Of a stretch of 64,000 bases of DNA, positions 11,966 through 41,646 are shown piece by piece (the first letter of the stretch is position 1; every line of letters starts with the position of its first letter). This stretch comes from Candidatus Diapherotrites archaeon ADurb.Bin253. GTDB taxonomy: Archaea; Nanobdellota; Nanobdellia; Pacearchaeales; GW2011-AR1. The stretch is from the NCBI GenBank assembly GCA_002069705.1, contig MWBV01000001.1, positions 21,768 to 85,767 of the forward strand, read 5' to 3'. A program made the translations under genes and the position numbers. The notes under the pieces are model-generated. The model had not been told where the DNA came from and did not search any database. It saw nothing but the letters and a program-made list of their open reading frames with translations.

Positions 11966-12077
11966 TTAATAATCGTGTAAAGAAAATTAATAAAGTTTCC
12001 TATACAAAAACAAACATAAGTTTACCAAAAAGTATTTAAAGAATTTCCGGTTTTTCATGAAATAAAAGAAGTGAAAA

Positions 12078-15886: not shown

Positions 15887-18800
15887 CTAGGATTGAGTAT
15901 ATAATGAATCTTGTGTAACTGAAACTTCGTACCCTTTTTCTGGTTCAAGTACAAAATTTAATCCAAAATATGGGGGCATTGAAGAATAATTATTTTTTAT
16001 ATATCCTTCAGAAATTTGACTAAATTCGTTCCAATTAGTTACCGAGTCTGCATAAGAAATGTTATTAATTAAATCAAATGCATCTTCTAATGAAGAATTT
16101 GCATATAATGAAATCCAATTTTTACCATAAAAAGTACTTGAAGATAAGTTTGTAAAAAGCATAATATTTACTTTATCTTTTACTGTTCCAACTAGGCTCC
16201 AATTAGTGAATTCTGAAGAATGAGGGTTAAGATTAACTTCATAACCTGCCCCTTCTTGTAGATTAAAATTACAATTTGTTTCGGTACAGCTTGGAAAATT
16301 TGGACAAGAAAATTCGTTGCAAGTAACTTTTCTTTGTAGAGTACTATTCCACATTGTAAATGCTGTAATATTATTTATGAAATTAAGAGAATTATTTGCA
16401 TCATCTAAATTACTATTATTCAAATAAAACCCAAGCCAATTTTTATTATTTATTTCATCTTTTCTCTTTAAATAGTAAACTGTTTTACCCAGAGCGATAT
16501 TACTGAAATTTTCTCCTGTTGGATTCCAATTAGATAATTTATAAAATCTTCTTCTTGTAGAATTAGCAAAATTATCAACATAATTAGTTTTGTTTGTTTG
16601 TGCTAAAAAAGAGAATTCTTCTTTCAAATCATCTGTATAATATATTTTATAATAGTCTGAATGATTTGCAGGTTCCCAATCTATAATTACTTCTCCTGTT
16701 CCATCGTCATTAGTTTGGGAGATGGTTATTAAAGAGGAATTTGGAGATTCTGGAAAGAAAAATGCTGCAAAAGTAAAGTTAGTAGAATTAAATGCAAAAT
16801 TTCCAGAATTATCATAGCATAAAACATTCCAAAGATAATGCCCTTCTCCAACCATCTCTTTATTGTAAAAGCTTAATGAAGTTTTCTTTTGAGGATTTAA
16901 AAATGTCTCATTAATATGCCAACCCCCTGCCCAATCTCCATATAATGTGCAATTAGATATTTCGTTTAAATCATCTACAGAGAAATTTAAAAAAGGTATT
17001 AGTGTCCCTGAAAAATTTAAGTAATTACCTGATAATAAATTTACTTCTGGAGGAATTGTATCTAAATTTATTCTTCTTGTTTCTGTAAAATTATAGTTTC
17101 CTACAATATCAAAAATAGTTACATTGAAAAGATAAGAGTTATCCTCTAAAGAAGTTAAATTAATACTTCTGCTAGAATCTGTAAAGGTTGTTGAATTTTT
17201 TAGAGTGTTATTTATGTAATATAGATTAAATGTAATATTTTTAAGATTCTTTTCAACTACTGAGACATTTAGATAAATCCAATTTTGAGAACTATTTGAA
17301 TTATTTTCTGGAGTTGGAAAAACATAATCTATTAAGGGAGATACAGAATCTGTTATAACCATCTCTGTTTCATTATAATAAGCAGTGTAGTTTTGTGTAT
17401 CTGTTCTCAGCATTGAAAAATTATAAACTCCATAAACTAAGGATTGTTCTGAATTATTTGGAATTAGGGTTCCGTTTCTGTATAAATTAAAAGAAGAAGT
17501 ACAATTAGCCCATACTCTAAATGTTTCTGTAGAATCTATAGGAGAACTTACATTAAACAAAACTTGACAAATTTCTGGATTTTTATTTATTGTAAAAAAG
17601 GAATCTGTATAAGAAAAAGAATAATTCAGTGTATCTGTTCTGTATGCAGAAAAGTTATAAGATCCAACACCTAACTTTTGTTCTGAATTGTTTGAAATTA
17701 TTATTCCGTCTCTATATAATCTAAAAGGAGATGTTGAATTAGTATAAACTCTAAATGTCTCTGGGTAAGTTATTGGAGAAGATGTATTAAATTGTACTTT
17801 AAATTGTTCTGTATTTTTTTGAATTATTAAATTCTCTGTATCTAAATTTGAATGAGAAGTGTAATTTGCACCTCCTGTTGTGTTAAGAATATAATTATAA
17901 AATCCTGCTCCCAATGTAATTGTTTCTCCAGTATTAATATTTGTATTATTTCTATATATTCTATAAATTAAATCAGAATCTCCTTGGAGATGATTTGTTG
18001 AAGAAATTGTTGTGCTTGTAGGATAAGTTAATTCCCATCCTGCAGAACTTGAAAGAGTTGCTGTAGGAGTTCCCTTATTTACTATGAAAAATTCTGAGGA
18101 AAAGAAATTTGTATAGTTTTGTGTATCTGTTCTTTGTACAGTTATGTTGTAATATCCAGCTCCAGAATTTATTATTGAATTATTTGGGATTGAAGTTCCA
18201 TTTCTATAAATTGTGTAAGCTGAAGAACAGTTTGTATAAACAATGAAAGTTTCTGGATATGTTATTGGGCTTAAAGTATTGAAATAAACTCCGCAATCAT
18301 AAAAAGTTGATTTGTTTACTTGAACTGTGTAGATTGTCCAATTAATGTTGTTTGAAGAATCATTTATTGAAACATTAATCGCATAATTTCCTGCTGCGAG
18401 CGAGGTTGAGTTTGAAAGATATCCTGTTTGATTTATTGAAAACCTGGTATCGTTAATTTTGTAAAATCCAAAATTGATATTATCTGTTGCATCAAAGTTA
18501 ACTCCTAAAGATTGATTTTTATAAAACAAAGAGGCATTGTTTGGAATTTGTGTAAAATAAGGGGGAGTTACATCTAACAATTCATCGATTGTAAAATAGC
18601 TATAATCGTAAGTATATGAAAAATTCTGTGAATCTAATCTAAACATTGAAAAATTGTAAGTTCCTGCAGCCAATTTTTGTTCAGAATTGTTTAAAATCTC
18701 TGTACCATTCCTATACAATGTAAATGGAGAGGTACAGTTTGCCCAAACTTGAAATGTTGCTGGATAATTTATTGGAGAAGTTTCATTGAAAAATATCTCG

Positions 18801-21349
18801 CAAATCTCTGGATTTTTTAAAACAATAAATTCTCTTTGATGAAATATATAAGTATAATTTTCATTCTCTTGTCTTTCAGAAGTAAAATTATAATATCCTG
18901 CTCCTGAATCTATTATTGAATTATTTAGTATTTGTGTTCCATTCATAAATAAGTTATGATTTGAACTACAATTTGTATATACTCTAAATGTTTCCGGATA
19001 AGTTACTGGAGAAGATGTATTAAAATAAACAAAACAATCCTCATTTGATTTAAGAACATTAACATTGTAAAGAATCCAATTAATGTTGTTTGATGTGTCG
19101 TTAATAGAGATATTCAATAAATAATTTCCTCCTGATAAACTTGTGGAATTGGTTAAAAATCCTGATTGATTTATTGAAAATCTAGTGTCATTAACAGAAT
19201 AATATCCAAAATTTACATTATCTGTTGCATCAAAGTCAACTCCTAAAGATTCATTTCCGTAGAAGATTGAAGCATTTAATGGTATAAATATAAACTCGGG
19301 AGGAGTTGTGTCCAATAAAAACTCTCCTGCTGAAATTGCTATCCAATTGAATTCTCTTCCATTACAATTATTTGTGGTGTCATCATCTTCTGCTGTTACA
19401 GTGAAAGAGGTTGTTGTTTTTCCAGAGACTTCTATTTCACAAGGGTCTGCTGTGCCTGTTCTTGATGCTGTTGTTACAACCACGTAATTTGTATCTGGAA
19501 AAGAACTTCCCAATTGAATAACTTTTGAAGTTGGTCCAGAAGCAGTATCACTACCTGCTTTAATTATTATTCCGCCTATTGTTTCTGTACCATAGGAAAC
19601 AGCACACCAATCTATACTGCTAACAGCTTCTAATGCTCCACCATCATCTAAAATAACTGAATTCCAGCTTCCTGTTGATTTTGAAGAATAACTTACTCTT
19701 GGAGAATCAGAATCCCAAGGTGTATAAGCTACAACAGCATAATTTGTATCTGGGAAACTTGATTCAAAATTTATTACAGATGTGCTTGAACCTGAACCTG
19801 AATTACATTTAACTGAAATATTCTGAAAATCAAATTCGCCAAAAGATAATGCTGCCCACTCAATCCCTGCAGATTCGTTTGCTCCACCATCATCGTGAAC
19901 CCTGTTTATTCTAAAGCCAGTTGTTGCTTTGTTATCATATTGAATAGAAAAAACAGCATCTGTATCTTGTTGTCCTGAAAATAAAATTGAATAATTTGTA
20001 TCTGGCATAGCAGTTGAGAAAGTGATTTGAGTAGGAGTTCCTGCATAATAATAAGTCACTCCAGTACGAGCATAGAAATTCGGGTCTATAATATGATCAA
20101 ATTCCAAAATACCTCCAACTACCTTTAAATCAAATATGTCTTGTTGAGATTGAAGATTTGTTAAATAAACTTTATTATATTCGTTTGAAATAAGATTATC
20201 AAATTGTGCGATTAACTCATTTTTATCTTTTTCATAAACTTCAACTATTGGATTTCCTGAGATAATTCTTGGAAATAATGTTATATCTCGTGTGCTATCT
20301 AAAGGTACTTCAAAAGTAACTCTAACATATTCTCCTTCTCTTATTTCTTCTGACCAGAGATTATCTTTTTCTTTTACTTGCTCATAAATATCTGAAATAA
20401 AATTTTTATTTGAATCTAAGTGTTCTGCTTTGATTATTACAATTATTTCAAATGTTTGAGATGACAAATGGGGAGTTATCCATTCTACATAATCAAATAA
20501 GCCATTACCATTTGTATCTGAAGCATTGAAATCTAAATAGGTGTTGTTTTCTTTCCAATATATTTTAATTGAAGATTTTGAGTATATTTCTCTAGGTAAG
20601 TAAGTATAAGAGAGAACATTCTTGTAATTGAGTCCTTCTAATGAGGAAACTACAACTTCTTTGGTTGTGTTAGAAATTATTGTTTCTTCTATTTTTGGAG
20701 GTTCTGTAGTATATTCTATTTTAAGTTCCCCAGAAATGTTTTCAGATAGAGATTCTGTTAAATTAATGTAATTTTTGCCATCAATGTTTGTCAAAGTATA
20801 TGAAATTTCTTCACCTGTTTTATCTGTTAAAGTTAAATTAATTACTGGTGGTATCTCTATTAAATTTGTTAAATTCTCTTCTGAAATTGTTTGTGTCCAT
20901 TCTACTGGCTTATTTATTTCTGCTTTTTCTTGAACAGGGTCTTCTGGATTAAGTTTTTGCTCTTCAGGAGATTCTTGTCCTGATGAAATAACAAAGAAAT
21001 AATAAACCTTTTTCCCGTTTCCTCTCTGAACAACTACAGAGTATTCTCCTTCCTCTTCTAGTTTAAGTAAAAAATTATCGTTTGATGAAACTCTAGAGAT
21101 AACTTCTTTAGATGGAGAATTTATAATTAATTTGTAATTGCCTAATTTTGTGAAATCTAACCTCAAAACAGTATCTAAGGGATAAGTATTATTTGATTTA
21201 AAATCAAAAATTACAGAATTTCCTCTTTCTTCTGGAATATTTGAATATGCTGAAGAAAAAAGAGAGAATGCTATTATTCCAAAAAGGAACAAAGACAGAA
21301 AGCCAATTACACCTATTTTAATTAACCCTTTTTTCATTTGATTACGCAA
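15887..21349 (-). CDS. Giant (1820-aa) repetitive cell-surface protein (S-layer/adhesin-like)
   Basis: N-terminal signal/anchor, dense N-x-S/T sequons, and internal repeats (e.g. FNTSSPITYPETFRVYTN... recurs about 5 times). Its N-terminal region is paralogous to 1..1282 and to part of 32749..36054. Confidence 0.7.
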   Translation of the reverse strand: MRNQMKKGLIKIGVIGFLSLFLFGIIAFSLFSSAYSNIPEERGNSVIFDFKSNNTYPLDTVLRLDFTKLGNYKLIINSPSKEVISRVSSNDNFLLKLEEEGEYSVVVQRGNGKKVYYFFVISSGQESPEEQKLNPEDPVQEKAEINKPVEWTQTISEENLTNLIEIPPVINLTLTDKTGEEISYTLTNIDGKNYINLTESLSENISGELKIEYTTEPPKIEETIISNTTKEVVVSSLEGLNYKNVLSYTYLPREIYSKSSIKIYWKENNTYLDFNASDTNGNGLFDYVEWITPHLSSQTFEIIVIIKAEHLDSNKNFISDIYEQVKEKDNLWSEEIREGEYVRVTFEVPLDSTRDITLFPRIISGNPIVEVYEKDKNELIAQFDNLISNEYNKVYLTNLQSQQDIFDLKVVGGILEFDHIIDPNFYARTGVTYYYAGTPTQITFSTAMPDTNYSILFSGQQDTDAVFSIQYDNKATTGFRINRVHDDGGANESAGIEWAALSFGEFDFQNISVKCNSGSGSSTSVINFESSFPDTNYAVVAYTPWDSDSPRVSYSSKSTGSWNSVILDDGGALEAVSSIDWCAVSYGTETIGGIIIKAGSDTASGPTSKVIQLGSSFPDTNYVVVTTASRTGTADPCEIEVSGKTTTSFTVTAEDDDTTNNCNGREFNWIAISAGEFLLDTTPPEFIFIPLNASIFYGNESLGVDFDATDNVNFGYYSVNDTRFSINQSGFLTNSTSLSGGNYLLNISINDTSNNINWILYNVNVLKSNEDCFVYFNTSSPVTYPETFRVYTNCSSNHNLFMNGTQILNNSIIDSGAGYYNFTSERQENENYTYIFHQREFIVLKNPEICEIFFNETSPINYPATFQVWANCTSPFTLYRNGTEILNNSEQKLAAGTYNFSMFRLDSQNFSYTYDYSYFTIDELLDVTPPYFTQIPNNASLFYKNQSLGVNFDATDNINFGFYKINDTRFSINQTGYLSNSTSLAAGNYAINVSINDSSNNINWTIYTVQVNKSTFYDCGVYFNTLSPITYPETFIVYTNCSSAYTIYRNGTSIPNNSIINSGAGYYNITVQRTDTQNYTNFFSSEFFIVNKGTPTATLSSSAGWELTYPTSTTISSTNHLQGDSDLIYRIYRNNTNINTGETITLGAGFYNYILNTTGGANYTSHSNLDTENLIIQKNTEQFKVQFNTSSPITYPETFRVYTNSTSPFRLYRDGIIISNNSEQKLGVGSYNFSAYRTDTLNYSFSYTDSFFTINKNPEICQVLFNVSSPIDSTETFRVWANCTSSFNLYRNGTLIPNNSEQSLVYGVYNFSMLRTDTQNYTAYYNETEMVITDSVSPLIDYVFPTPENNSNSSQNWIYLNVSVVEKNLKNITFNLYYINNTLKNSTTFTDSSRSINLTSLEDNSYLFNVTIFDIVGNYNFTETRRINLDTIPPEVNLLSGNYLNFSGTLIPFLNFSVDDLNEISNCTLYGDWAGGWHINETFLNPQKKTSLSFYNKEMVGEGHYLWNVLCYDNSGNFAFNSTNFTFAAFFFPESPNSSLITISQTNDDGTGEVIIDWEPANHSDYYKIYYTDDLKEEFSFLAQTNKTNYVDNFANSTRRRFYKLSNWNPTGENFSNIALGKTVYYLKRKDEINNKNWLGFYLNNSNLDDANNSLNFINNITAFTMWNSTLQRKVTCNEFSCPNFPSCTETNCNFNLQEGAGYEVNLNPHSSEFTNWSLVGTVKDKVNIMLFTNLSSSTFYGKNWISLYANSSLEDAFDLINNISYADSVTNWNEFSQISEGYIKNNYSSMPPYFGLNFVLEPEKGYEVSVTQDSLYTQS

Positions 21350-21478
21350 ATTTAGATATTTTTATAGATTATTGTTATACAAAATCTCTTATAATGGTAA
21401 GATTTAAATACTTTTAAAAGTATCTGTTTAGTATCAAAAGAGGGTAATTAGGCACTATTAAAATCCTTTTAAAAGTAC

Positions 21479-21637
21479 ATGGTTGAAATAACATTTAAAG
21501 ATAATAAGATACAAAAAGGCCACAGAATCAAAATTCCAAAGGCAATAGTAGATACACTTAATCTAAAAGAGGGTGCAAAAATAATTTTGAAATTTGACCC
21601 AATAAATAAAAAAATAATTGTGGAGGAAGAAAAATGA
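21479..21637 (+). CDS. Small AbrB/MazE/SpoVT-type (swapped-hairpin) DNA-binding protein; absent from the supplied ORF track
   Basis: Manual translation gives 52 aa: MVEITFKDNKIQKGHRIKIPKAIVDTLNLKEGAKIILKFDPINKKIIVEEEK. The GHRIKIPKAIVDTLNLKEGAKI stretch matches the AbrB-family looped-hinge pattern. The stop TGA overlaps the ATG of 21634 (ATGA). Confidence 0.45.
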   Translation: MVEITFKDNKIQKGHRIKIPKAIVDTLNLKEGAKIILKFDPINKKIIVEEEK

Positions 21638-21954
21638 ATAAAGTATTCTTGATAGTAATTATAGGGTCATTCTTTTTTGGAATCAGTGGGATTATTTTTG
21701 CAGAAGAATTTCAAGAAGGAATTAAACTTTCAGAGGGAAAAAATTTAGTTTATTTTAGTGAAGAGATTAAACCAATATATGCAAGTGATTTGGTTAAAAT
21801 TTATCCTGAAATAAATGCTATTACTTATTATGAGGGAGATGAAGAAAAAGGATATGTAAATGTGTTTGGAGGGGTTGGAGAAAATTTTGTTGTAATGTTC
21901 AATAACACTTACGAAATAACTGTTGAAAAGGAGGTAACATTAAAATTAAAATGA
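21634..21954 (+). CDS. Small secreted protein
   Basis: 106 aa with signal peptide MNKVFLIVIIGSFFFGISGIIFA. The stop overlaps the next start (ATGA). Confidence 0.45.
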   Translation: MNKVFLIVIIGSFFFGISGIIFAEEFQEGIKLSEGKNLVYFSEEIKPIYASDLVKIYPEINAITYYEGDEEKGYVNVFGGVGENFVVMFNNTYEITVEKEVTLKLK

Positions 21955-23144
21955 TAAAAAAGATTTCATTAAATCTGGCAATTATCTTGTTTATTTTGCC
22001 ATTGGGCTCTGCAGCGCATTATATTGTTGGAATTGTTGAAAATGCAAAAGATGGAACTAGTGCTAATGGGCAGAGTATAGTTCTTTGGAATCCTGCCGTA
22101 GGAATTCAAGAAAATGTAAGTGATATAATTGGTCCTGCTGGAAACTCCAGAACAAATAATATCTATATGATTGATTGTGAACTTCTACCAAGCGGATGCA
22201 ATGTTACAAATACCTTAAGTTTAAAGGTGATAAATAATGGGGACAATTATATTTCCCAAGAAAAAAATGTTAGTGTTGGGGGATTTGGATATGATATTGT
22301 AGAGAATATAACATTAAATTCTCCTCCAAATATCACTCTTGTAAATGTGGATGATTCAATTACTTCTCCGCAAAATGAAATTGATTTAATACCTGCTGAA
22401 ACTAAAGAAGTAATCTGTTCTGCTATTATTTATGAATATGAGGGAGAAGAGTCATTGATAAATGCAACTGGAAGATTTTTTGACAATGTTCAATCAAATT
22501 ACGATTCCTTAGAAGATAATAATGAGCATTATAGAAACAATAGTTGTTTGATAGATAAAAATTATGGAGGAGTTAATGAAGCTGCTGTTTATTGTAGTTT
22601 TTATATTTGGTATTATTCAAATTCTGAAAACTGGAATTGTACTATAGAAGTAACAGATAATTTATCTATATCCTCTAGAGGTAGTGATTTATCTTTCATA
22701 AATCCTCTTCTAGCTTTAGGAGTGGAATCAGTTGTGACATTTAATCTAACAAAATCTGACATAACTGACGAAGCAATATTGGATGTTACAAACTATGGGA
22801 ATGTTAAAATAAATCTATCTTTAAGCGGATATGCTTTTGAACAGAATGATGGTTTAGCTATGAATTGTAGTGAAGGTGAAATCAGAAATATACCTGTAGA
22901 AAATGAAAAATACAATTTAACCAATAGCAATTCAGGAGATATAACATTTGAAGAGTTTATGATATCTTATAAAAATTTGACGAGTTACCCTGCTGTAAAT
23001 AAATTCAATCTAGAATATAGAAAAGATGATTTACTAAATGAGGCTACCAAATCAACATACTGGAGGATTCATGTTCCTGACGGTATAACTGGAAATTGTC
23101 AGGGAAATATTGTTTTTGGAGCTGTAAGAGCACCAGGAGATTAA
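21951..23144 (+). CDS. Secreted protein; N-terminal ~130 aa near-identical to 26353..28218
   Basis: 397 aa. Signal peptide, then AAHYIVGIVENAKDGTSANGQSIVLWNP...NVTNTLSLKVINNGDNY shared with the paralog. Confidence 0.6.
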   Translation: MIKKISLNLAIILFILPLGSAAHYIVGIVENAKDGTSANGQSIVLWNPAVGIQENVSDIIGPAGNSRTNNIYMIDCELLPSGCNVTNTLSLKVINNGDNYISQEKNVSVGGFGYDIVENITLNSPPNITLVNVDDSITSPQNEIDLIPAETKEVICSAIIYEYEGEESLINATGRFFDNVQSNYDSLEDNNEHYRNNSCLIDKNYGGVNEAAVYCSFYIWYYSNSENWNCTIEVTDNLSISSRGSDLSFINPLLALGVESVVTFNLTKSDITDEAILDVTNYGNVKINLSLSGYAFEQNDGLAMNCSEGEIRNIPVENEKYNLTNSNSGDITFEEFMISYKNLTSYPAVNKFNLEYRKDDLLNEATKSTYWRIHVPDGITGNCQGNIVFGAVRAPGD

Positions 23145-24347
23145 ATGAATAACAAAATAAGAATAGGTATCAAAACAGGAATCATTACGTTAATTATAAT
23201 TGTAAATTTATTATATGTCTCTTCTGCAAACATAGGCGTTAGTCCAGCAAATGTTTATTTCAAAGATGTTTTAAGAGGAGGTTATGCTGAAAGAATAGTT
23301 ACAATAACTGTTGATTCTGAAGAACCTACAAAAATATCTCTTGAACCAAGAGGAGAGATTGTTGATTGGGTTTCATTTGAAGAGAAAGAATTTGAAGTTT
23401 CAAGAAATAAACCATATTATTTAAAAATAATTTTACAGCCTCCTGTTGATATACCTAATGGAAATTACACTGGTTTCTTAAGAGTAACTACCTCTAGCAA
23501 AAATAAAGGAGTTGAGGGACAAGCCACTGGAGTAATTAATGCTGCATTAGATTTATACTTAGAAGTAAAAATAACAGATGTGGAATTCTCTTCTTGTAGA
23601 GCGTGGGACTTTCAAGTAGAATCTGTAGAAAAAGGAGATGATATTTTATTTAAAGTTAAAGTGTTAAATGAAGGAAACGTTAGGCTTTATCCTACGATAA
23701 AAATAGACATGTGGGATCAAGAAAGAACAGAACTAGTCAAACAAGTAGAATTTTCTGAAGATATGATAATTCCAACAACTGAAAAGGAATTAAATATAAA
23801 GGTGGAATCTTCTGACATGAACTTGGGACAATACTGGGCAGAAATAACTTCTATTGAATGTTATGCTGCTCAAACATTAACTTTTGATATTTTAGAAGAA
23901 GGTGCTTTGAAGGCCCAAGGAAATCTTTTAAGAATCAGTTCCCCTACTTGGATTAAAGTAGACGATACGACAATAATTGAAGCTTTATTTGAAAATACTG
24001 GAGAAAAAAATGTAAATGCTAGGTTTAAAGGAGAAATTACACTTGGCAGTAGAGTAATACAAATACTAGAGAGTGAGTTGTCTAGTGTTTCCATAGGCGA
24101 AATAGAGACATTTAAATTTTATTTTACTCCAAGGAAAGAAGGTAAGTATATAGTTACTGGAATGGTATTTTATGATGGAAAAAGAACATTTGAAAAAAGT
24201 ACTGTCATAAATGTAGAAAAAAAAGGTTTTGATATTGGTGTTATTAGAACTATTCTAATTTATTTAATATTGCTTATAGTTATAGCTTATCTAGCTTACA
24301 AAATAAAAAAAGAAAAGAGGAGGAATAATTTAAGATGGAAAAGATAA
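23145..24347 (+). CDS. Surface protein with beta-sandwich domains and C-terminal TM anchor
   Basis: 400 aa with N-terminal signal. C-terminal IRTILIYLILLIVIAYLAY followed by a basic tail. Confidence 0.55.
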   Translation: MNNKIRIGIKTGIITLIIIVNLLYVSSANIGVSPANVYFKDVLRGGYAERIVTITVDSEEPTKISLEPRGEIVDWVSFEEKEFEVSRNKPYYLKIILQPPVDIPNGNYTGFLRVTTSSKNKGVEGQATGVINAALDLYLEVKITDVEFSSCRAWDFQVESVEKGDDILFKVKVLNEGNVRLYPTIKIDMWDQERTELVKQVEFSEDMIIPTTEKELNIKVESSDMNLGQYWAEITSIECYAAQTLTFDILEEGALKAQGNLLRISSPTWIKVDDTTIIEALFENTGEKNVNARFKGEITLGSRVIQILESELSSVSIGEIETFKFYFTPRKEGKYIVTGMVFYDGKRTFEKSTVINVEKKGFDIGVIRTILIYLILLIVIAYLAYKIKKEKRRNNLRWKR

Positions 24348-26356
24348 AGTCATTTTTATTTCTAGGAATTTTATTGACTTTGACACCTTTATTGATTGCA
24401 GCAAACTCTGTGACAATTAATACTTTCTATGGTTTCTCTAATGATTCGTTTATAGATGGTACAGTATACAAAACAGACTCTGTTGTTTTGAGGGTAAAGA
24501 CCTCTGTTGAAACAGAATGTTATTATGGTAAAGAAATTTATCCTTCTACTCCCTTCCAAGGAGAATATGGATTAACTCATGAAATATATTTGGAAAATAT
24601 TGAAGAAGGGTTCCATGAATATTATATAAGGTGTGGGGAAAGTTCCAATCCAATTATGAAGATAAATTTTGCAACAAGTACACCTATCTATGCTACTATA
24701 AAAATATCTGAAAATGCTCCTCTTAAATCTGGAAGGTACAAAATAAATTTAATTACTTCTAAAACAAGTTTAAATACCCCTCTTCTAGAGTATAGTTTTG
24801 ATGATTTAGTTTACAAAACAATTCCATTAAGAGGGTCTGGTAAAAATTGGGAAGGTAACTTGATAATTCCTGAAAATGCTGGTGAAAGTGTATGTTCATT
24901 TAGATTTAAATCGAAAGATATTACTGGAGAAGAAGGAACAAAAATTATTGGAGACAATCTATTCCTCGTAGATACAATTAAACCTGCTACAATTTCCATA
25001 ATTAGTGCCACAGGATATAAAGGAAAAATAAAATTAAATTGGTTTAGTGAAGAAAAAATAGATAATTATAATGTTTATAGGTCTGAATATTCTCCTGTAG
25101 ATTACACTGACTTCTATGAATTGTCAAGTAAAGATTATTTTTATGATGAAGATGTAGAAAAAGGCAAAACATATTATTATAAAATAGCTGCAGTAGATGA
25201 AGCTGGAAATATTGGAGATTTATCTAAGGAAGTATATGCTACTGCGTTGTTAAGTAATACTTCTGAAAATACTGGATTAAATATAAAATTAATTGGAAAG
25301 GTAGATAATTTTATTATAGAGATTGACTCTCTGATTAAGAATATTGAGGACATAAAAGAACTTTTAAAACTAAAAGATAATAAGGAAAAACAGATATTTG
25401 AAAGTATTAAGTTAAATAAAGAGTTGGAAAGTGCTATTCTAGAATTAAACTCTTTAAAAAGAGATGTAGAAAATTATAAACTTCAGGATTTGAGTGAAGA
25501 TGAATTAAACAAAAAAATATCTTCTTCTTCGATTAAATTGAGTATTATAAAGAAAAAGATACCAGAAGATATAACTATAATAGAGGAAGTAGAATTTTAT
25601 AGAGAGATAAAAAAAGAAGATATAGATAGAATATTCTTACAATATTCCAATTATGATGATAGAGGTTATGGTAAAGAAATAACTTATACTCAAAAATTAA
25701 TTGAAGACCCCAAAACAAAAATTAAATGTAATGCTTATAGTGTAGATATAATATATATTGATGGTACAAAAAAGAAAATAACATTTGTTGAAGAAGAACT
25801 AAGCATAAAAGAAGAATATGAAAAAGAAGTTAATTATATTTTAATAGTTCCAAAAGAAATTGCTGAAAGAGCTTCTGACATAAAAGTAATAAATTTGGAA
25901 TATGAAACTATAAAAGAAGGTCCCATAATTCTTTTTAAACCAGATGTAAAAAAAGTAACTTATTATTTTTTCAAGGAAATTCCTTTAAATTCTATTAAAG
26001 AAATAACTCTATCGCCTATTAAAATACCTTCGTTAGAAGAAGGCCAGTCAAAAATAACAGGAAATTCTATTTTAGAATATACCTCAAAAGGATATTTTGG
26101 AATAATTGTTTTAATTGCTTTTGCATTAATATTGGGAGTTTATTTTCTTAGAATAAGAAATGGTTCTTCGATTAAACCCTTATTGATAACTATGGAGAAT
26201 CTAAAAAAAGTTAAATCTCTCTTAAAGGAAGGGAGGGAACAAGAAGCTAAGGAATTGTATAGTAAAATAAAAGAAGATTATAAAACTCTTTCAAAAAAAG
26301 AAAAGGAATTGGTGGTTGAAAAAATAAATGAGATGAATTTTGGAGGAATAAGATGA
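24335..26356 (+). CDS. Surface protein with fibronectin-III-like domain, C-terminal TM and a conserved cytoplasmic tail
   Basis: 673 aa. Fn3-like YNVYRSEYSPVDYTDFYELS...GKTYYYKIAAVDEAGNIG. TM YFGIIVLIAFALILGVYFL. Tail ...LKKVKSLLKEGREQEAKELYSKIKEDYKTL. Confidence 0.6.
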   Translation: MEKIKSFLFLGILLTLTPLLIAANSVTINTFYGFSNDSFIDGTVYKTDSVVLRVKTSVETECYYGKEIYPSTPFQGEYGLTHEIYLENIEEGFHEYYIRCGESSNPIMKINFATSTPIYATIKISENAPLKSGRYKINLITSKTSLNTPLLEYSFDDLVYKTIPLRGSGKNWEGNLIIPENAGESVCSFRFKSKDITGEEGTKIIGDNLFLVDTIKPATISIISATGYKGKIKLNWFSEEKIDNYNVYRSEYSPVDYTDFYELSSKDYFYDEDVEKGKTYYYKIAAVDEAGNIGDLSKEVYATALLSNTSENTGLNIKLIGKVDNFIIEIDSLIKNIEDIKELLKLKDNKEKQIFESIKLNKELESAILELNSLKRDVENYKLQDLSEDELNKKISSSSIKLSIIKKKIPEDITIIEEVEFYREIKKEDIDRIFLQYSNYDDRGYGKEITYTQKLIEDPKTKIKCNAYSVDIIYIDGTKKKITFVEEELSIKEEYEKEVNYILIVPKEIAERASDIKVINLEYETIKEGPIILFKPDVKKVTYYFFKEIPLNSIKEITLSPIKIPSLEEGQSKITGNSILEYTSKGYFGIIVLIAFALILGVYFLRIRNGSSIKPLLITMENLKKVKSLLKEGREQEAKELYSKIKEDYKTLSKKEKELVVEKINEMNFGGIR

Positions 26357-28218
26357 ATAAAAAAATCTTATTTATATTTCTCGTATTGCTTATTTTACCA
26401 TTGAGCTCTGCTGCACATTATATTATGGGATTTGTTGAAGATGCAAAAGATGGAACTAGTGCTGATGGACATAGTATAATCCTTTGGAATCCTATTATAG
26501 GAATTCAAGAAAACATAAGTGATATAATTGGTCCTCTTGGAAACTCTGGAACAAACAATAAGTATACGATTGATTGTGAACTTTTGCCAAGCGGATGTAA
26601 TGTGACAAATACATTAAGTTTAAAGGTGATAAATAACGGGGATAATTATGTTTCACAAGAAAAAAATGTTAGTGTTAGTGTATTAGGATATGATGTTGTA
26701 GAAAATATAACATTAAATTCTCCTCCAAATACTACTCTGATTTATCCAACTGATTTTGAAAAGATTCCATATTCTGAAGTAATGTTTAATTGTTCAATAG
26801 AAGATTTAGATAATAATGCAAAAGAAATTAGTTTATATGGAAACTGGACAGGGGCATGGGAACTAAATGAAACCCAAGAAATCAGTTCGGGGGATAAATT
26901 CAAAACATTTATTAAAAGCATTGCAGATGGTTTCTACAAATACGCTTGTAAAGTAACAGACAGTTTACTAATCTCTAGTTTTTCTCTACAAAACAATAGC
27001 TTTGCAATAGATACAAACATTCCTCTAATCCAATCTATTTCTTCTAATGTTTCTAGCTTGTGTGGTAAGACAAATACAATACAAATAAATTGTACTGCTT
27101 ACGATGAAACATCAGGAATAGATAAAGTAATAATACAATCTATTTCTCCACAGAATGAAATAAACAATTACAGTGCAAATAATATTTATGATAACATCTA
27201 TTCTTATGAAATACTGCTTGATAAAATTGGAACATGGAATTTTAATTGTATAGCTAATGATAGTGCAGGAAATTACAACAATTTGTTTTTAAATGATATA
27301 AATGTTTATTCTGAACTCCCTCAAATAAGCATAAATTCTAGTTCAATTAATCTAAGCAAAACAAATCCTATTGAAACAGAAGAAATACAAATTTCTGCTT
27401 TTGTGGAGAATAAAGGATGTTCTAATGCAGAAAATGTAGTTGTTGTATTTTTTAATGGAGATCCAGAAATTTCTGGAGAGAAGATAGGAGAGAGTGTAAT
27501 AAATATAAGCGAAAATGATGGGCTTGTATCTAGTATTTCTTGGAGCACTAAAATTGGGCTAAATAATATTTTTGTTATAGGAGACTATTACAATTCTTTT
27601 GATGAAGAGGATGAAACAGACAATAAAGCAAATAATACATTTTCCATAAATTCTTGGCAAGAAATATATGGGAACACACAAGTAGATAAGGTTATTGGGG
27701 GAGACCAAGTTGAAATAAAAAAATGGTTTAATGAAAGTTATTTAGAAGGAAGTATTTTTGTAGCAGATTCTGAGTCAGATATCAACTGGTTGTCTTTAAA
27801 ACCAATAGGAAGAAAAAAAGATGGACAAAAAAGTTCAGAAGATTTTTTAGAAATAGATGAAATACTCGGGATGACTTTTTTTGAAGATTCTGTTTCTAAT
27901 GTCTTTTCTGAAAACCAAGAACCAAAAGAAACCAGAGATATGATTATTTATCAAAAAGAAATAAAAAATGTCCCGATAATTAATTCTACAGAAAACTCAG
28001 ATTTTATAACTGGTTTACTTTGGGATAGTTCAGATGACTCTTATAATGGAGAATTTGATAGTGAAGATAAAGAAGATATAGTATTTGTTACACCAATAAT
28101 TAAAAATTCTCCTGGGAAATATGGAATTTATGATTATGAGATAAGGATACCTTCAAAATTAAGAGAATACAATAAATTGAATATTGAAGAAGTTTATCTA
28201 TATTATGAACTTAATTAA
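26353..28218 (+). CDS. Secreted protein, paralog of 21951..23144 with a longer C-terminal region
   Basis: 621 aa. Its N-terminus is near-identical to 21951..23144 at both protein and nucleotide level. The stop shares the palindrome TTAATTAA with the convergent ATPase gene. Confidence 0.6.
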   Translation: MNKKILFIFLVLLILPLSSAAHYIMGFVEDAKDGTSADGHSIILWNPIIGIQENISDIIGPLGNSGTNNKYTIDCELLPSGCNVTNTLSLKVINNGDNYVSQEKNVSVSVLGYDVVENITLNSPPNTTLIYPTDFEKIPYSEVMFNCSIEDLDNNAKEISLYGNWTGAWELNETQEISSGDKFKTFIKSIADGFYKYACKVTDSLLISSFSLQNNSFAIDTNIPLIQSISSNVSSLCGKTNTIQINCTAYDETSGIDKVIIQSISPQNEINNYSANNIYDNIYSYEILLDKIGTWNFNCIANDSAGNYNNLFLNDINVYSELPQISINSSSINLSKTNPIETEEIQISAFVENKGCSNAENVVVVFFNGDPEISGEKIGESVINISENDGLVSSISWSTKIGLNNIFVIGDYYNSFDEEDETDNKANNTFSINSWQEIYGNTQVDKVIGGDQVEIKKWFNESYLEGSIFVADSESDINWLSLKPIGRKKDGQKSSEDFLEIDEILGMTFFEDSVSNVFSENQEPKETRDMIIYQKEIKNVPIINSTENSDFITGLLWDSSDDSYNGEFDSEDKEDIVFVTPIIKNSPGKYGIYDYEIRIPSKLREYNKLNIEEVYLYYELN

Positions 28219-30551
28219 TCTTTTTTTGGAGAGGATTCTTTAATAAAATTATTCAATATTTCTACTATCTTTGATTTTTCAACCTCTGCTAAAATTTTCT
28301 TGGATAATTCTGGTGAAACTTGTTCTGCCCATTTTGCAATATCGTGACGTTTAGAATTAACATGTATCTTGAAAACAGCTAATTCTATACCCGGCAATGT
28401 TTCAGCTAATTCTTTTAATGAAGATATCATTATTCCATTATCAAATGTAAGTGGTTTGAGTATTTTTGTAGATATGTTTTCTGCTTCTACTTTCTTTTCT
28501 TCTATTTTCTTTTTCTTTAATTCTTCTTTTTCATATATTGCTCTAGCTTTCCTTGCCTCTTCTACAGATTTCTGAATTTCTGAAGCGTCTATAAGTTTCT
28601 TTTCTAATTTTTTTGGTTTCTTACCTAGTTTTTCCCATTGTTTCTGTAACCTAGGTCCTATTCCTTCTATATAAATATCAACTACAGAAAAATTACCACT
28701 CATTAATTTGTCTTTTATTAATTTCAATTCCATCTTTAAATCAAATGTATCTATTTTTTCTTTTTCTAATTGTTCTATTTGATTATCAAAGTCATCAATT
28801 ATTTCATTATATTTATTGTATTTCTCTAGCTCTTCATCTGAAAGTCTTCTTGTGTTGTGTAAAATAGGTCTAAAATTTATGAAGTAGGGTTTACCTTTAT
28901 TATATGCTGTATTAACAAACATTCCAACTCCAACAGATGCTTTAACTAAGGACTGCAAAAATTCCTCTCCATATTTTATTTTTATTCTTCCTAAATCTCC
29001 TTCATCTCTTGTTCTCATTTGTATTTCTGTGTTAATATTTGCTTTAATTTCTCCTACAAAGTCACTTAAAACCTGAGAAACTAACATAACTCCAATTCCC
29101 CATTTTCTAAATTCTCTACATGCTCTTTCGATTTGTAAAAATCCTTCTCCACTACCTCCAAACTTTGAAAGTAATCTATGTACCTCGTCAAAAACTAATA
29201 AAACTTTTAAATCAGGGGTTTCCTTTGGATCTGATTTAAATATTTGTCTTATAGCACTAGCAACAAAAATATCCATATCATTTGGATCAAGTTTATTTAA
29301 TGCAAATATTTGTATTTGTCCAGGATGTATGAATCTTTCTATGTCTATTACTTCTCTAGCATGGGAGATTTGTCTAATGTTTCCAAAAAATGCTCTGGCA
29401 TCAGAGGGTTTTAATCCAAATTTTGGATAATAAGAAAGCATTTTTTTATCTTCGCATTTTCTAAGCATACCTGACCACTGAGCTGTTGGGTCAAATACAA
29501 TTACTGCGACATTTTTCATTAAAGCCTCTTCTATTAATACCTGGGCAGCAATACTCTTTCCTCCTCCTGTAGCTCCAGCAACAATACTATGTGTTTTTAA
29601 TTTTTCTGGTTCCAAGCAAGCTTTAATTTTTGTTTCTGCTATAAGCCCAAGAGATAAATTTTCTTTAGAGGGCATAGGAAGTTTTTTTGTATCTAATTCC
29701 ATACGATATTTCTTTGAAAGTTTTATACGTCTTTTGATTAGGAAATAAATGAGTAAAAATAATAAAATCATTCCTATTCCAGAAAACAAAAGCCAAAGAG
29801 GTAAGAATCCGAATAAAAGCCTACTGAAAAAAGGCTTTCTAATTACAAAATAGCTCAAGGCAGGAATTAATTCATTATTATATACTGCAGATAATTGAAG
29901 TATATATTCTCCTTTTTCTATTTCTGGAGGCATTTCAAATTCTTTTAGGTGATAAAAAGAATTAGTAAAATTAAAACTCTCCTGGCCTAAGAAATAAGAA
30001 TCGTTTTTTGTGTTGTTCAAAGAATAAGAAAGAACTATTTCGTCAAATTCTCCAGAATTTATCCTATATAAATATACTTTAAATTTAAGTTTTTCATTTA
30101 ATTTAAAATATTTTTTATAGGGTTCTACTTGAACAAAAAAAACCGGATTTAGGTCTGATTCCACTACTCGAATATTTACAAGTATCCTTTCATTAACTCC
30201 TCCTGAAATAAGTATCTCTCCAGAGTAATTTCCAATCCTTGCACCTTTAATATAAAAGTACATTGCAGAACTGTTTTTTGGAAATATTTCAATTCCAGAA
30301 GATTCAAATTCAAGTAATTCCATCACATTACCTGAAGAAGAAAATGTTGCAGAGATAGGTTCGTTCCTAAGATTGTTCACAATAATAAAATCTTGGAAGA
30401 GTGTTCCCACTTCTACACTTCTATCTACTTTGCTCCTAGAGACAACATATCCTTCTCTTTGTATCTCGTCTCCATATGCAGATTCTGCTATAATCATCTG
30501 AGAAAAGAATAAGATAAAAAAGAGTATTAGTAAAAATTTTTTTATTTTCAT
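28215..30551 (-). CDS. Single-pass membrane protein: extracellular beta-sandwich domain fused to a cytoplasmic HerA/VirB4/FtsK-superfamily ATPase (paralog of 8567..11965)
   Basis: 778 aa. Signal peptide, ~240-aa ectodomain, TM LFGFLPLWLLFSGIGMILLFLLIYFLI, then an ATPase domain with Walker A HSIVAGATGGGKS and Walker B LLVFDEVHRLL. The ATPase domain is mostly identical to ATPase1 over ~380 aa, and shared nucleotide strings show through (e.g. acctgaccactgagctgttgggtcaaatacaattactgc). Confidence 0.7.
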   Translation of the reverse strand: MKIKKFLLILFFILFFSQMIIAESAYGDEIQREGYVVSRSKVDRSVEVGTLFQDFIIVNNLRNEPISATFSSSGNVMELLEFESSGIEIFPKNSSAMYFYIKGARIGNYSGEILISGGVNERILVNIRVVESDLNPVFFVQVEPYKKYFKLNEKLKFKVYLYRINSGEFDEIVLSYSLNNTKNDSYFLGQESFNFTNSFYHLKEFEMPPEIEKGEYILQLSAVYNNELIPALSYFVIRKPFFSRLLFGFLPLWLLFSGIGMILLFLLIYFLIKRRIKLSKKYRMELDTKKLPMPSKENLSLGLIAETKIKACLEPEKLKTHSIVAGATGGGKSIAAQVLIEEALMKNVAVIVFDPTAQWSGMLRKCEDKKMLSYYPKFGLKPSDARAFFGNIRQISHAREVIDIERFIHPGQIQIFALNKLDPNDMDIFVASAIRQIFKSDPKETPDLKVLLVFDEVHRLLSKFGGSGEGFLQIERACREFRKWGIGVMLVSQVLSDFVGEIKANINTEIQMRTRDEGDLGRIKIKYGEEFLQSLVKASVGVGMFVNTAYNKGKPYFINFRPILHNTRRLSDEELEKYNKYNEIIDDFDNQIEQLEKEKIDTFDLKMELKLIKDKLMSGNFSVVDIYIEGIGPRLQKQWEKLGKKPKKLEKKLIDASEIQKSVEEARKARAIYEKEELKKKKIEEKKVEAENISTKILKPLTFDNGIMISSLKELAETLPGIELAVFKIHVNSKRHDIAKWAEQVSPELSKKILAEVEKSKIVEILNNFIKESSPKKD

Positions 30552-32446
30552 TTTTCTGTTCTCCCTTTTTGAATGCTTGTATCTTTTTTTTGTTTATTTT
30601 GTTCTTCTTTAGATTCTTTAGATTCTTTAGGTTCTTTAATCTCTTTTTTTTCTGGGGTGTTAACTTTAGGTATTTCCTTGGAATCTTTAGTGAAGGAATT
30701 GTACAAATCACTTATCTCTTTTTTTAATCTTTCTCTATCATCAAAAACCTCTTTAGGAATTGGTTCGCGATAAATATCTTTTATTTTTATAAATAATTTA
30801 AGTGCTTCATCCTCTTTATTTTGTTTTATTAAACTCTTTAATCTATTTAACATTATATACAACTCCAAAAGCCTTTCTTTCTTTTTGTCTCTTTTGTGCT
30901 TTACCATCAATATTGCTAAAAGTATTGCCACTAAAAGTATTAAAAAAGAGATAGAACCTATCTTGAAGAAAGATGCAAAATTGAATCTTGTACCTACCTC
31001 AAAAGGAACTGAATCTATAGCTATGTTCTTTTCATCTGAAGCTCTGGCATATATTAAATAATTTCCTTCAGGAGTTAGACTTGGCACTTGTAATTCTCTT
31101 TCAAGAAAAACATTGTAAAAAAACACTATTTCTTCTTCTGAAAAGTTGTACACTTTTCCTTCATAATCTTTTATAGCATAGTACAAAGAAGCATTAACTT
31201 CTTTTAAATCCTTAATATTAAATAAGCTTATATTAAATTTGATATTTTTTCCTGGTTTAACTAAAGAATACCCTTCAGATAAATTTAAAATCAAATCAAA
31301 CTCTAAATCTATTGCTTGAACATCTAATACTGTGGGAATTGACTTATTTACTTTGGGAGATTTCACATCTATATATCCAAAATATTGTCCAGGAATAGTT
31401 CTTTCTGGAGCGTAAAAATCAATAGTAATTTCTTTTGATTTTCCTGGAAGAATAGTTATGTTTGTTTCGCTAAAAATTGTGAAATTGTTTATTTTTCTTG
31501 AAGAAAGATGGATTGGAATCTCTTCTAATCCTGTATTTGTTATCTTTAAAACTCTTGTTTTTGAAGAACCTTGTTTCAAAGAAACCCTTAATTCTGATAT
31601 ACTAAGCTGAAAGTTTTCAGATTTTCTTTTTTGAATTTCTATTTTACTTAAAATTCTATCCACTAGCCGAGATGGATCTTTACCAGAATCTCCACTGCTT
31701 CCTCCACCCCCAGAATATCCTCCAGGTATTTGTTGGGTAGAAACAACAAATGATTGTATGGGCGTAAGGTTCATATTTTCAGAAGTATCGAATGCATAAA
31801 ATCTCCAATAAACAGTATTTAATGGGGGTGCTCTTATTTGAATGTTACGAAAAGAGACGTTTTCTAATCCAGAAAAATTTGTAGAAGAATAATTTTCCCA
31901 TCCTGCTCCTTGGTTTATTGAGAAGATATATCTGCCTAACCCTCTGTCATCTGTCCAATTTGTTACAAATGTTATTATGTCATTTTGATAAACTGTTTGT
32001 TTACTTATATTTGGGGAAGACCAGTTAGGGGGGGAAGAATCTAATCCCACATATAACATAACTACATTACTAAGGGTATCATAAATAGAATCTGAAGCAT
32101 AAAAAGTTACGTTCCTAGTCCCCGTAAATCCTTCTCTTGGAAAAAAAGAAACTTCATTTGTTAAGGGGTCTATAAATACATAAATATCTTCTACAGAAGA
32201 ATTATAGTATGAAAGATTTGGAGAATCTGCATCTGAGAAATAATCATCTAAATCAAATGCATTTAAATGATTTTGATTCTCTGGCCAGCTTTGGTTTGGA
32301 ATGTCCTTTATAAGAAACGGGGGAGAATTAGGAATATCTAAACTAGTTAAGATATCAGCAGATACAAATTGTAAAAAACAAAATAAAATTACAAATATCA
32401 TCTGTAAATATTTTTTCCCCTCTTTTAAAAAAAATGAAAATCTCAT
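30548..32446 (-). CDS. Surface protein with beta-sandwich domain, TM and conserved cytoplasmic tail; translationally coupled upstream partner of ATPase2
   Basis: 632 aa. Signal peptide, GGGGSSG linker, TM IGSISFLILLVAILLAILMV, tail ...LNRLKSLIKQNKEDEALKLFIKIKDIYREPIP. Overlaps 28215..30551 by 4 nt. Confidence 0.6.
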   Translation of the reverse strand: MRFSFFLKEGKKYLQMIFVILFCFLQFVSADILTSLDIPNSPPFLIKDIPNQSWPENQNHLNAFDLDDYFSDADSPNLSYYNSSVEDIYVFIDPLTNEVSFFPREGFTGTRNVTFYASDSIYDTLSNVVMLYVGLDSSPPNWSSPNISKQTVYQNDIITFVTNWTDDRGLGRYIFSINQGAGWENYSSTNFSGLENVSFRNIQIRAPPLNTVYWRFYAFDTSENMNLTPIQSFVVSTQQIPGGYSGGGGSSGDSGKDPSRLVDRILSKIEIQKRKSENFQLSISELRVSLKQGSSKTRVLKITNTGLEEIPIHLSSRKINNFTIFSETNITILPGKSKEITIDFYAPERTIPGQYFGYIDVKSPKVNKSIPTVLDVQAIDLEFDLILNLSEGYSLVKPGKNIKFNISLFNIKDLKEVNASLYYAIKDYEGKVYNFSEEEIVFFYNVFLERELQVPSLTPEGNYLIYARASDEKNIAIDSVPFEVGTRFNFASFFKIGSISFLILLVAILLAILMVKHKRDKKKERLLELYIMLNRLKSLIKQNKEDEALKLFIKIKDIYREPIPKEVFDDRERLKKEISDLYNSFTKDSKEIPKVNTPEKKEIKEPKESKESKEEQNKQKKDTSIQKGRTEK

Positions 32447-40410: not shown

Positions 40411-40815
40411 TCATTTAATCTTAAAAGAAGGAAGGGGAAGATGTGGTGGAAGATTAAGCTCTTCTTCAAATTGTAATGCTTTTAGATTACATTTTCTAAA
40501 AATAGAATTAAATATAATTTCCTTGAATTTTTCTGGTATTTTCTTTTCCTCCCATTTATTTAATATTTCATCGGATTCTGAATGTGAAAGAGAAACTAAA
40601 AGATAGCCAGAAAATTTTAACAGAGCTATGTCTTGCTCGTAATTAAGTTCATATTCAAATTTTATTTTTATTGGCGATTCAGAATCAGTTAATAATGTAG
40701 AAGATGATTTTTGTATCCCTAATATATTTAATTTTGTAGAAATTTTAATATTTTTAAAAGAATCTTCTTTTCTTTCTAAATCGATTTTATAAAAACTTAT
40801 TCCTAATACCTTCAT
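40411..40815 (-). CDS. Hypothetical protein
   Basis: 134-aa ORF. No recognisable motifs. Confidence 0.3.
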   Translation of the reverse strand: MKVLGISFYKIDLERKEDSFKNIKISTKLNILGIQKSSSTLLTDSESPIKIKFEYELNYEQDIALLKFSGYLLVSLSHSESDEILNKWEEKKIPEKFKEIIFNSIFRKCNLKALQFEEELNLPPHLPLPSFKIK

Positions 40816-40893
40816 AAGATAGAAATCAAAGATTTATTTTTAAATATTTGTATTAAAGAGATTTATATAATTTAACTAAATAAATTAAATTAT

Positions 40894-41640: not shown

Positions 41641-41646
41641 TATATA

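Follow-up and report, generated by a model that had tools for sequence, protein, structure and literature searches.

We analysed a 64,000-nt stretch of contig MWBV01000001.1 from Candidatus Diapherotrites archaeon ADurb.Bin253, hereafter the window, and found on its forward strand a six-gene operon, g1–g6, in which a small gene for an AbrB/SpoVT-type protein precedes five genes for envelope proteins. We favour, with moderate confidence, an explanation in which this AbrB-type first cistron regulates the envelope-module operon that it heads; we infer the regulatory role of g1 from its position and from the co-inheritance of an upstream sequence motif. The genes and a candidate terminator are as follows.

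21479–21637 (+): g1, 52 aa, AbrB/SpoVT-fold predicted DNA-binding protein, first gene
21634–21954 (+): g2, 106 aa, ATGA overlap with g1
21951–23144 (+): g3, 397 aa, ATGA overlap with g2
23145–24347 (+): g4, 400 aa, abuts g3 as TAAATG
24335–26356 (+): g5, 673 aa, 13-nt overlap with g4
26353–28218 (+): g6, 621 aa, ATGA overlap with g5
28221–28227 (+): T7 run directly 3' of the g6 stop codon, candidate archaeal oligo-T terminator

Overlapping or abutting junctions, internal Shine-Dalgarno (SD) sites and a common strand together mark g1–g6 as a predicted translationally coupled operon. SD sites of the GGAGG type precede g2, g3, g5 and g6 (four of the five downstream genes), and that of g2 sits with its start codon within the final codons of g1 (GTG GAG GAA GAA AAA TGA). 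No SD site of the GGAGG type precedes g1 itself, and its ATG at 21479 is the sole possible start, since an in-frame TAA lies two codons upstream at 21470–21472. The original prediction for this stretch had proposed six open reading frames (ORFs) with overlapping or abutting junctions and had read them as a translationally coupled surface-protein operon headed by an AbrB-like protein. The ORF coordinates bear out the former exactly, and the latter is supported by the data presented here.

The protein encoded by g1 is 100%, 94% and 88% identical to its orthologues in three related species, where g2–g6 reach only 45–72%. The ratio of non-synonymous to synonymous substitution (dN/dS) for g1 is 0.007 and 0.044 at dS 0.55–1.2, in contrast to 0.12–0.46 for its neighbours g2–g6. 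On these data we have almost no doubt that g1 is a true gene, and the purifying selection on it is extreme. It had been called unannotated, which holds for the ORF track used in that first reading but not generally, as public contigs carry a g1 gene call (232 blocks of the collection); the call is missing in at least one assembly, that of L012, although the ORF is intact there.

Several sources name relatives of g1 as AbrB family or PrlF antitoxin, and several relatives have precomputed matches to PF04014. Within the g1 family, 69 of 72 members match PF04014 at E ≤ 0.01 (best 6.1e-7). An AlphaFold2 model of g1 (predicted local distance difference test, pLDDT, 81.7) has the order beta-beta-alpha-beta-beta, with strands at residues 11–12, 16–17, 35–40 and 45–50 and a helix at 21–27. 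The top 16 Foldseek matches of this model in the PDB are AbrB, SpoVT, MazE, Sso7c4 and C68 (TM-score 0.6–0.78, probability 0.66–1.0), among them AbrB-N (1yfb, TM-score 0.77) and SpoVT (2w1t). Residues G14, R16, K18, I19 and P20, which belong to the G-x-R-V-x-I-P motif of the first hairpin with its predicted basic DNA-contact positions, are invariant in the 72 family sequences, and we take the conserved Arg to be the equivalent of AbrB Arg15. Family members are 52–60 aa long and end 5–10 residues past the last strand. Together the profile search, the model and the Foldseek matches support the AbrB-like fold first proposed from the sequence, and we are confident that g1 adopts a predicted AbrB/SpoVT fold comprising little more than one swapped-hairpin, predicted DNA-binding domain.

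In an alignment of four species with saturated synonymous sites, four non-coding blocks, A–D, are conserved upstream of g1. The elements of this region are:

21359–21377 (−): block A, TTTTTATAnATTrTTGT, TATA box of the divergent giant gene (putative promoter role)
21401–21423: block B, TTTAAATA overlapping a perfect dyad, TATA box plus O1
21401–21410 (+): operon promoter, purine-rich bases resembling a transcription factor B recognition element (BRE) and TATA box TTTAAATA
21408–21423 (no strand): O1, perfect 16-nt palindrome ATACTTTTAAAAGTAT, candidate g1 operator
21429–21448 (+): block C, TAGTATnAAAAGAGGkTA, with SD-like GAGG after TAGTA
21464–21478 (no strand): O2, block D, CCTTTTAAAAGTAC, abuts the g1 ATG

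Two palindromes, at 21408–21423 and 21466–21477, had been put forward in the original prediction as control sites for both divergent units. Both are present and lie inside conserved non-coding blocks: the first is O1, between the TTTAAATA TATA box and the predicted transcription start, and the second, CTTTTAAAAGTA, falls within O2. They belong to a 28-nt direct repeat (82% identical, copies spaced 55 nt apart), and as a 14-mer with ≤1 mismatch they are the sole matches in the 64 kb. They stand as conserved candidate control sites for the operon, but they need not serve both units, since the giant gene has its own conserved TATA block at 21359–21377. Given that this block lies ~25 nt from the giant-gene ATG, a leaderless mRNA is predicted for that gene. 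The distance from the start of the TATA box to the TAGTA of block C is constant at 27 nt; this TAGTA may mark the predicted transcription start or else be a third half-site of the AGTA[CT] type. O2 in turn may act as a second operator or, by pairing with block C, supply the 3' arm of a hairpin in the leader RNA. Also considered and rejected were a leaderless g1 promoter (the region 25–30 nt upstream of the ATG is unconserved), a small upstream ORF after the SD-like GAGG (its start codon is not conserved) and a second promoter at the proximal repeat (its transcript would be expected to begin within g1 and to lack any start codon downstream).

In a profile scan, species-representative genomes yielded 53 g1 loci, all in DPANN metagenome-assembled genomes and 52 of them readable; five genomes carry two copies. 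Throughout the 52 species-level loci g1 stands as first cistron; in 50 of them an overlap of 4–38 nt joins it to the next gene, whose protein has a hydrophobic N-terminus (signal peptide or transmembrane segment) in 47. The cargo consists of g2/g3/g6-type operons carrying the N-domain described below in 28 loci, of a homologous ~1290-aa family in 16 loci (then MoxR-DUF58-vWA in L014), of a ~260-aa family in 3 loci and of a giant-adhesin type in 1 locus. In 47 of 49 loci the 120 nt upstream of g1 contain a TTTAAATAC-type 9-mer; in other sequence it occurs 0.004 times per 120 nt and is thus ~250-fold sparser. The extended motif, TTTAAATA then TACTTTwAAAAGTAy, usually with more AAAAGTAy copies, was found in the ~0.8 Mb sampled solely upstream of the g1 family, plus upstream of one substitute. 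This substitute, a 57-aa ribbon-helix-helix (RHH) protein (IPVTFNEDQLSLIEKYTGILGNTKAEIIRNIV; L008 11282–11455), occupies the g1 position before g4-g5-g2-g6 and is preceded by the same TTAAATACCTTAAAAGTATC promoter motif. We regard this as non-orthologous replacement, one small DNA-binding first cistron having taken the place of another.

Genomes with two g1 paralogues (pairs L047/L029, L054/L049, L060/L042 and L062/L063) allow the motif to be compared within one organism. One paralogue, of subclade MKEMIFKDG, heads g3-g4-g5, and there the repeats are AAAAGAACC and 'TAGTAT' reads TAGAAC; the other paralogue heads the gene for the ~1290-aa surface protein and keeps AAAAGTAy. Such paralogue-tied variants within one genome are what specific operators would look like. 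We conclude that the g1 cassette is portable, extremely conserved and exclusively linked to DPANN surface-protein operons. A full-text search of the literature found no description of the cassette or of the HerA-linked cluster discussed below.

These data allow us to propose a mechanism. As a dimer or tetramer, g1 would bind O1 in the interval between the TATA box and the transcription start, which is the usual site for an archaeal repressor that blocks transcription factor B (TFB) and RNA polymerase. The downstream copies, TAGTAT and O2 beside the ATG, would be further binding sites, and once bound g1 would compete with TFB/RNA polymerase or block early elongation. Since one mRNA is predicted to encode both g1 and the surface proteins, the result would be a negative feedback loop setting the output of the operon. 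We consider autoregulation of the operon by g1 through the conserved dyads to be modestly favoured.

Several observations weigh against this reading. The window g1 scores just below the curated cut-offs of both PF04014 (22.3 bits, E=1.3e-4, cut-off 24.7) and TIGR01439 (20.6 bits, E=2.7e-4, cut-off 28.3), and its Foldseek E-values are only 0.02–0.9, because the domain is short. Comparison of g1 with PDB chains, as a single sequence and as a 72-sequence profile, gave chance matches only and no AbrB protein; the tight family profile is too specific, and therefore fold comparison was used instead. Among the cargo, g2–g6 match no Pfam or NCBIfam family above threshold, and their fold matches are generic Ig-like, with TM-scores of 0.2–0.3. 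Given that the motif also stands before the RHH gene of L008, part of it may be plain promoter or may be read by another factor, and the link between motif variant and g1 subclade may trace to a single evolutionary event. Finally, blocks C and D are complementary, and the leader hairpin that they can form (90.3% of cells paired, vs 34–65% with the partner slid, and weak covariation) could explain their conservation without any operator.

This hairpin is central to the strongest rival explanation, in which the upstream blocks are a strong promoter plus a structured 5' leader whose hairpin governs translation or stability, and g1 leaves its own promoter alone, being a general nucleoid-associated protein like Sso7c4 or acting elsewhere in the genome. 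Common to 11 of 11 window-type leaders, the predicted hairpin (window 21430–21480) has three helices, GUAU/GUAC, AAGAGG/CCUUUU and a variable inner stem, and would bury the SD-like GAGG and end at the AUG. Its covariation score was reached by 4 of 500 shuffles and its extra pair-type count by 0 of 500, the inner stem shows some compensatory changes, and L022 and L023 have perfect inner stems of 8–9 bp with different sequences. However, its RNAalifold covariation term is about zero (+0.27), helices 1 and 2 are invariant, and the short-leader loci (L013, L030, L033; ~11 nt) keep O1 without the hairpin. Being upstream of the predicted transcription start, O1 moreover falls outside the RNA. The other half of this rival draws on the archaeal chromatin proteins 5itm/5itj and Sso7c4 among the top fold matches of g1, on its extreme conservation, which is unusual for a local regulator, and, like the leader itself, on the motif retained before the RHH gene. 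Against it, one would not expect a nucleoid protein to be invariably a first cistron that overlaps a gene for a secreted protein. The motif goes strictly with g1 under any cargo, and two paralogues of the same genome have different versions of it. Overall we judge this rival unlikely. The operator and leader-hairpin models are not exclusive, though, and the hairpin is a serious alternative for blocks C and D.

The nature of the genes coupled to g1 can be assessed separately. In g2 we find an N-terminal signal peptide or transmembrane segment. g3 is secreted, with a signal peptide, no anchor, 14 NxS/T sequons and 8 conserved Cys; its model (pLDDT 92.5) has three beta-sandwich domains whose PDB matches, all of low TM-score, are Gram-positive pilins, adhesins and alpha-2-macroglobulin-type Ig arrays. 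The model shows g3 as a predicted surface Ig-like protein and nothing more specific. g4 combines a signal peptide with Ig-like (ASH/CARDB-like) domains, a C-terminal transmembrane anchor and a basic tail, and g5 a signal peptide with an fn3-like segment, a transmembrane segment at 583–609 and a cytoplasmic tail of ~65 aa. g6 is again secreted and without anchor, with a signal peptide, 19 NxS/T sequons, an N-domain shared with g3 and a CARDB-like domain. The cargo g2–g6 is very likely located at the cell surface and encodes an envelope module, with g4 and g5 as membrane-anchored Ig-like proteins and g2, g3 and g6 as secreted ones. It belongs to no described family: the 263 matches of the g3 family and 1393 representatives of the g4 family are all 'hypothetical', and NCBIfam, PADLOC and PHROGs returned nothing for g2–g6 except an fn3-type match in g5.

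The two copies of the shared N-domain are:

21987–22339 (+): shared N-domain, g3 copy
26386–26738 (+): shared N-domain, g6 copy

They align over 353 nt without gaps at 87.3% nucleotide identity, the likeness ends abruptly, and the C-terminal parts of g3 and g6 have no detectable similarity. At the protein level the copies are 76–82% identical (76% over 128 residues), with 19 synonymous and 35 non-synonymous codon differences. Compared within single genomes, the N-domains of g3 and g6 share 82% identity in the window (dS 0.34), 81% in L011 (dS 0.53), 66% in L010 and 50% in L012; orthologous N-domains are 62–75% identical, and whole-gene orthologue dS exceeds 1. The likeness results from episodic gene conversion between two old paralogues, episodic because the excess is seen in the window and L011 but not in L010 or L012. 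A recent tandem duplication followed by fast C-terminal divergence would likewise produce an ungapped, abruptly ending match of 353 nt at 87% identity. We nevertheless consider it very improbable, as distinct g3-type and g6-type orthologues, both with the N-domain, occur in L008, L013, L030 and others and are 40–50% identical to the window proteins, the N-domains of L010 and L012 are no more alike than orthologues, and the C-terminal parts share nothing detectable. Given that both paralogue families carry the N-domain in distant relatives, the duplication is old. The original prediction spoke of near-identical N-termini of ~130 aa arising by recent duplication or gene conversion; the similarity and, in episodic form, the conversion stand, whereas the nucleotide alignment does not bear out 'near-identical' and, with paralogues this old, 'recent duplication' is mistaken. 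Separately, L011 has an extra, truncated g3-like copy without the N-domain between g3 and g4 (11198–12354, with an assembly gap inside), and L007 has a 332-aa g3-like gene without the N-domain.

The g3/g6 N-domain may serve as a common docking or assembly module, with the C-terminal domains as diversified outward-facing parts. On this view conversion would preserve the likeness of the copies, since each has to fit one common partner (g2, g4 or g5). The one observation that points to docking is that in relatives a g2-like gene lies directly upstream of whichever N-domain gene is present.

Gene order suggests a further partner for the module. In L010, L011 and L012 the g1–g6 order is kept together with a convergent gene for a 778-aa membrane HerA, while more distant genomes have these families in other arrangements. 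L007 and L009 have a single co-directional cluster, HerA (1243 aa), 113, 285, 70, helix-turn-helix (HTH), 256, HTH, 235, g4, g5, g2, g3, which ends with a 361-aa polytopic membrane protein and then a giant adhesin, and which unites the minus-strand cluster of the window (11965 to 1580) with g2–g5. The order in L008 is g3, 57-aa RHH, g4, g5, g2, g6, HerA. Conserved and rearranged orders alike therefore place g2–g6 homologues always near a membrane-anchored HerA/FtsK-type ATPase. The corresponding neighbours in the window are:

28215–30551 (−): convergent membrane-anchored HerA/FtsK-type ATPase, 778 aa; signal peptide, ectodomain, transmembrane segment 245–274, ATPase; conserved neighbour
30548–32446 (−): Ig-like membrane protein, 632 aa, coupled to the HerA gene
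8567–11965 (−): second membrane-anchored HerA/FtsK-type ATPase, 1132 aa, paralogue of the 28215–30551 ATPase
15887–21337 (−): divergent giant secreted glycoprotein, 1816 aa, 88 NxS/T sequons, true start ATG 21337

Both ATPases carry extracellular Ig-like or CarboxypepD_reg domains and are kept across Pacearchaeota, with up to 72% identity in the ATPase part. Their best NCBIfam scores are 13–39 bits against cut-offs of 366–970, so that they are members of no curated HerA, Ced or Tra family, and the PDB sequence matches of the ATPase are generic HerA only. The stop codons of g6 and the convergent HerA gene overlap (TTAA, 28215–28218), leaving zero intergenic spacer. The module may work together with this neighbouring ATPase; we advance this, and the role of the N-domain as a docking interface, as tentative suggestions of rather low probability. 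More speculative still, and in our view doubtful, is that the g1 cassette is the switch of a hitherto undescribed, DPANN-specific envelope machine for contact with a host cell or for transfer to or from it. Here the Ig-like membrane bases g4 and g5 would bear exchangeable glycoprotein heads, g3 and g6, that dock through the N-domain; assembly or power would come from the membrane-anchored HerA/FtsK-type ATPases with their Ig-like ectodomains; and g1 paralogues with GTAC as opposed to GAAC half-sites would insulate separate surface programmes in one genome.

Comparison with known systems places g1, by fold and motif, in the AbrB/SpoVT superfamily. With the N-domains of B. subtilis AbrB, Abh and SpoVT it has in common a beta-beta-alpha-beta-beta domain of ~50 residues and the G-x-R-[IV]-x-I-P-K signature with its invariant first-hairpin Arg. 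AbrB autoregulates, and g1 is likewise predicted to bind near its own promoter. Unlike AbrB, g1 is a DNA-binding domain only, without a C-terminal multimerisation domain. As an archaeal protein it would have a TATA/TFB promoter as its target, and it is invariably the first cistron, overlapping a secreted-protein gene. AbrB sites are loosely defined, whereas the candidate sites of g1 form an A/T-rich dyad that has GTAC/ATAC at its ends. Sso7c4 (2l66), the Sulfolobus 'histone-like' protein (5itj/5itm) and C68 of pSSVx (3o27) are, like g1, stand-alone archaeal AbrB-fold proteins (46–60 aa). According to their PDB entries they are chromatin or plasmid proteins, they are only 18–21% identical to g1, and g1 differs from them in having a fixed operon position and a private upstream motif.

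The MazE/PrlF/VapB antitoxins resemble g1 in fold, Pfam model, first-cistron position and a 4-nt overlap with the gene that follows, and such antitoxins typically autorepress through palindromes. That g1 is itself the antitoxin of a type II toxin-antitoxin pair is nevertheless most improbable: although the matching Pfam model is named MazE_antitoxin and JGI calls many relatives 'antitoxin component of YhaV-PrlF', the 52-aa g1 has no C-terminal toxin-binding extension, no toxin gene follows it (in 47 of 52 loci the next gene, with its signal peptide or transmembrane segment, encodes a surface protein of 100–1300 aa, and the downstream proteins fall into several unrelated families), no PIN, MazF or YhaV match was found, PADLOC returned nothing relevant, and its position is stable, syntenic and chromosomal across species. 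With neither a toxin partner nor a toxin-binding tail, g1 is not a toxin-antitoxin component.

For the operon as a whole, the nearest described concept is the predicted complex for secretion, or in the membrane, of archaea that combines arCOG01314 with MoxR, vWA and Ig-like S-layer-like proteins (Makarova, Galperin, Koonin 2015, PMC5898192), which shares with g1 loci the operons of Ig-like secreted and membrane proteins. The match is limited to the cargo of the L014 paralogue: in L014/L051 the g1 paralogue is followed by the gene for a surface protein of ~1290 aa and then by MoxR, DUF58 and vWA, as in that complex. Among the window proteins scanned there are no MoxR, vWA/DUF58 or arCOG01314-like genes, and the conserved partner of the window operon is instead the membrane-anchored HerA-type ATPase. 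Conjugative type IV secretion (T4SS) coupling proteins, Ced/Ted DNA import and the type VII secretion (T7SS) protein EssC likewise set an FtsK/HerA ATPase beside membrane and secreted proteins. The ATPases of the window score as members of none of these families (VirB4, TraD, CedB/D or EssC). Scans of the window proteins recognised no VirB6, VirB3, CedA or EsaA-like component, and unlike T4SS, Ced or T7SS the window ATPase has an Ig-like or CarboxypepD_reg ectodomain. That the cluster comes from an integrated virus or conjugative element, its HerA/FtsK ATPase serving packaging or transfer and its other proteins resembling tail fibres, is also very improbable: the two ATPases do weakly match TraD, TraC, CedD and terminase models, the giant protein has a Gp53-like_C domain and g5 matches the fn3 part of tail fibre J, but all the ATPase matches lie far under family cut-offs, g3 has no match among 50,697 phage records, PHROGs finds no capsid, integrase or replication protein, no tRNA or integrase lies near the operon, GC content is uniform, and the gene set is syntenic and chromosomal in many Pacearchaeota, beside housekeeping genes. 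PADLOC, PHROGs and the phage records gave no indication of a virus or defence system.

The window is chromosomal DNA of a DPANN archaeon (Pacearchaeota), as judged from its archaeal replication genes (Cdc6/Orc1 at 41790, PolD small subunit at 43019, PolD large subunit at 45667) and from the labels of its protein homologues (Pacearchaeota, Nanoarchaeota or Nanobdellota). Its GC content is ~28% throughout, Rfam and tRNA scans of it gave no match, and the same species is found on many public contigs. On those of L001–L006 (97–99.9% identical) the giant glycoprotein is 2978 aa rather than 1816 aa. The longer gene has an additional 3486 nt, in frame, between ~1.2-kb repeats, and window 18843–20045 matches those contigs twice; in L006 the protein is present as 2166 + 465 aa. 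The difference is either strain-level repeat variation or assembly repeat collapse.

Behind the gene for the 1132-aa HerA lies the rest of the conserved co-directional cluster (1580–11965, −): genes for 107 aa and 284 aa, then three secreted paralogues. The latter, of ~250 aa each (6515, 5005 and 4179), are 30–53% identical to relatives, and the cluster also includes an HTH protein at 5690–6325 (HVO_A0114-like in relatives), a 363-aa polytopic membrane protein at 2997–4088 and a 457-aa secreted protein. Adjoining cdc6, a 1-kb gap at 40815–41790 with 23% GC and AT-rich 73-nt repeats is a candidate replication origin, with TTTCCACAGGAAATAGAGG elements resembling origin recognition boxes at 41647 and 41744 and an inverted copy at 41256–41280. 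The only recognisable secretion or pilus ATPase in the window is a T2SSE/type IV filament ATPase homologue (60860–63148, +, 762 aa), which is unrelated to the g1–g6 operon.

Pacearchaeota and their fellow DPANN archaea have tiny genomes, have not been cultured and probably live attached to other cells. Nearly all of their surface proteins carry the label 'hypothetical', and we know of nothing published on how these are controlled. A small AbrB-type first cistron is a known kind of gene; what is unusual here is its portability, its extreme conservation and its link to DPANN surface operons. The locus offers a concrete regulatory unit, namely a 52-aa protein that can be synthesised, a defined candidate DNA target of ~80 bp and a conserved promoter, and this unit recurs before at least four families of surface-protein cargo in ~50 species. 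The episodic conversion of the N-domain may mark it as the likely assembly interface of the module. If autoregulation by g1 is true, the motif could be used to find the promoters of surface programmes in DPANN genomes, and the GTAC/GAAC paralogue pairs would offer a natural experiment on the specificity of a minimal AbrB domain.

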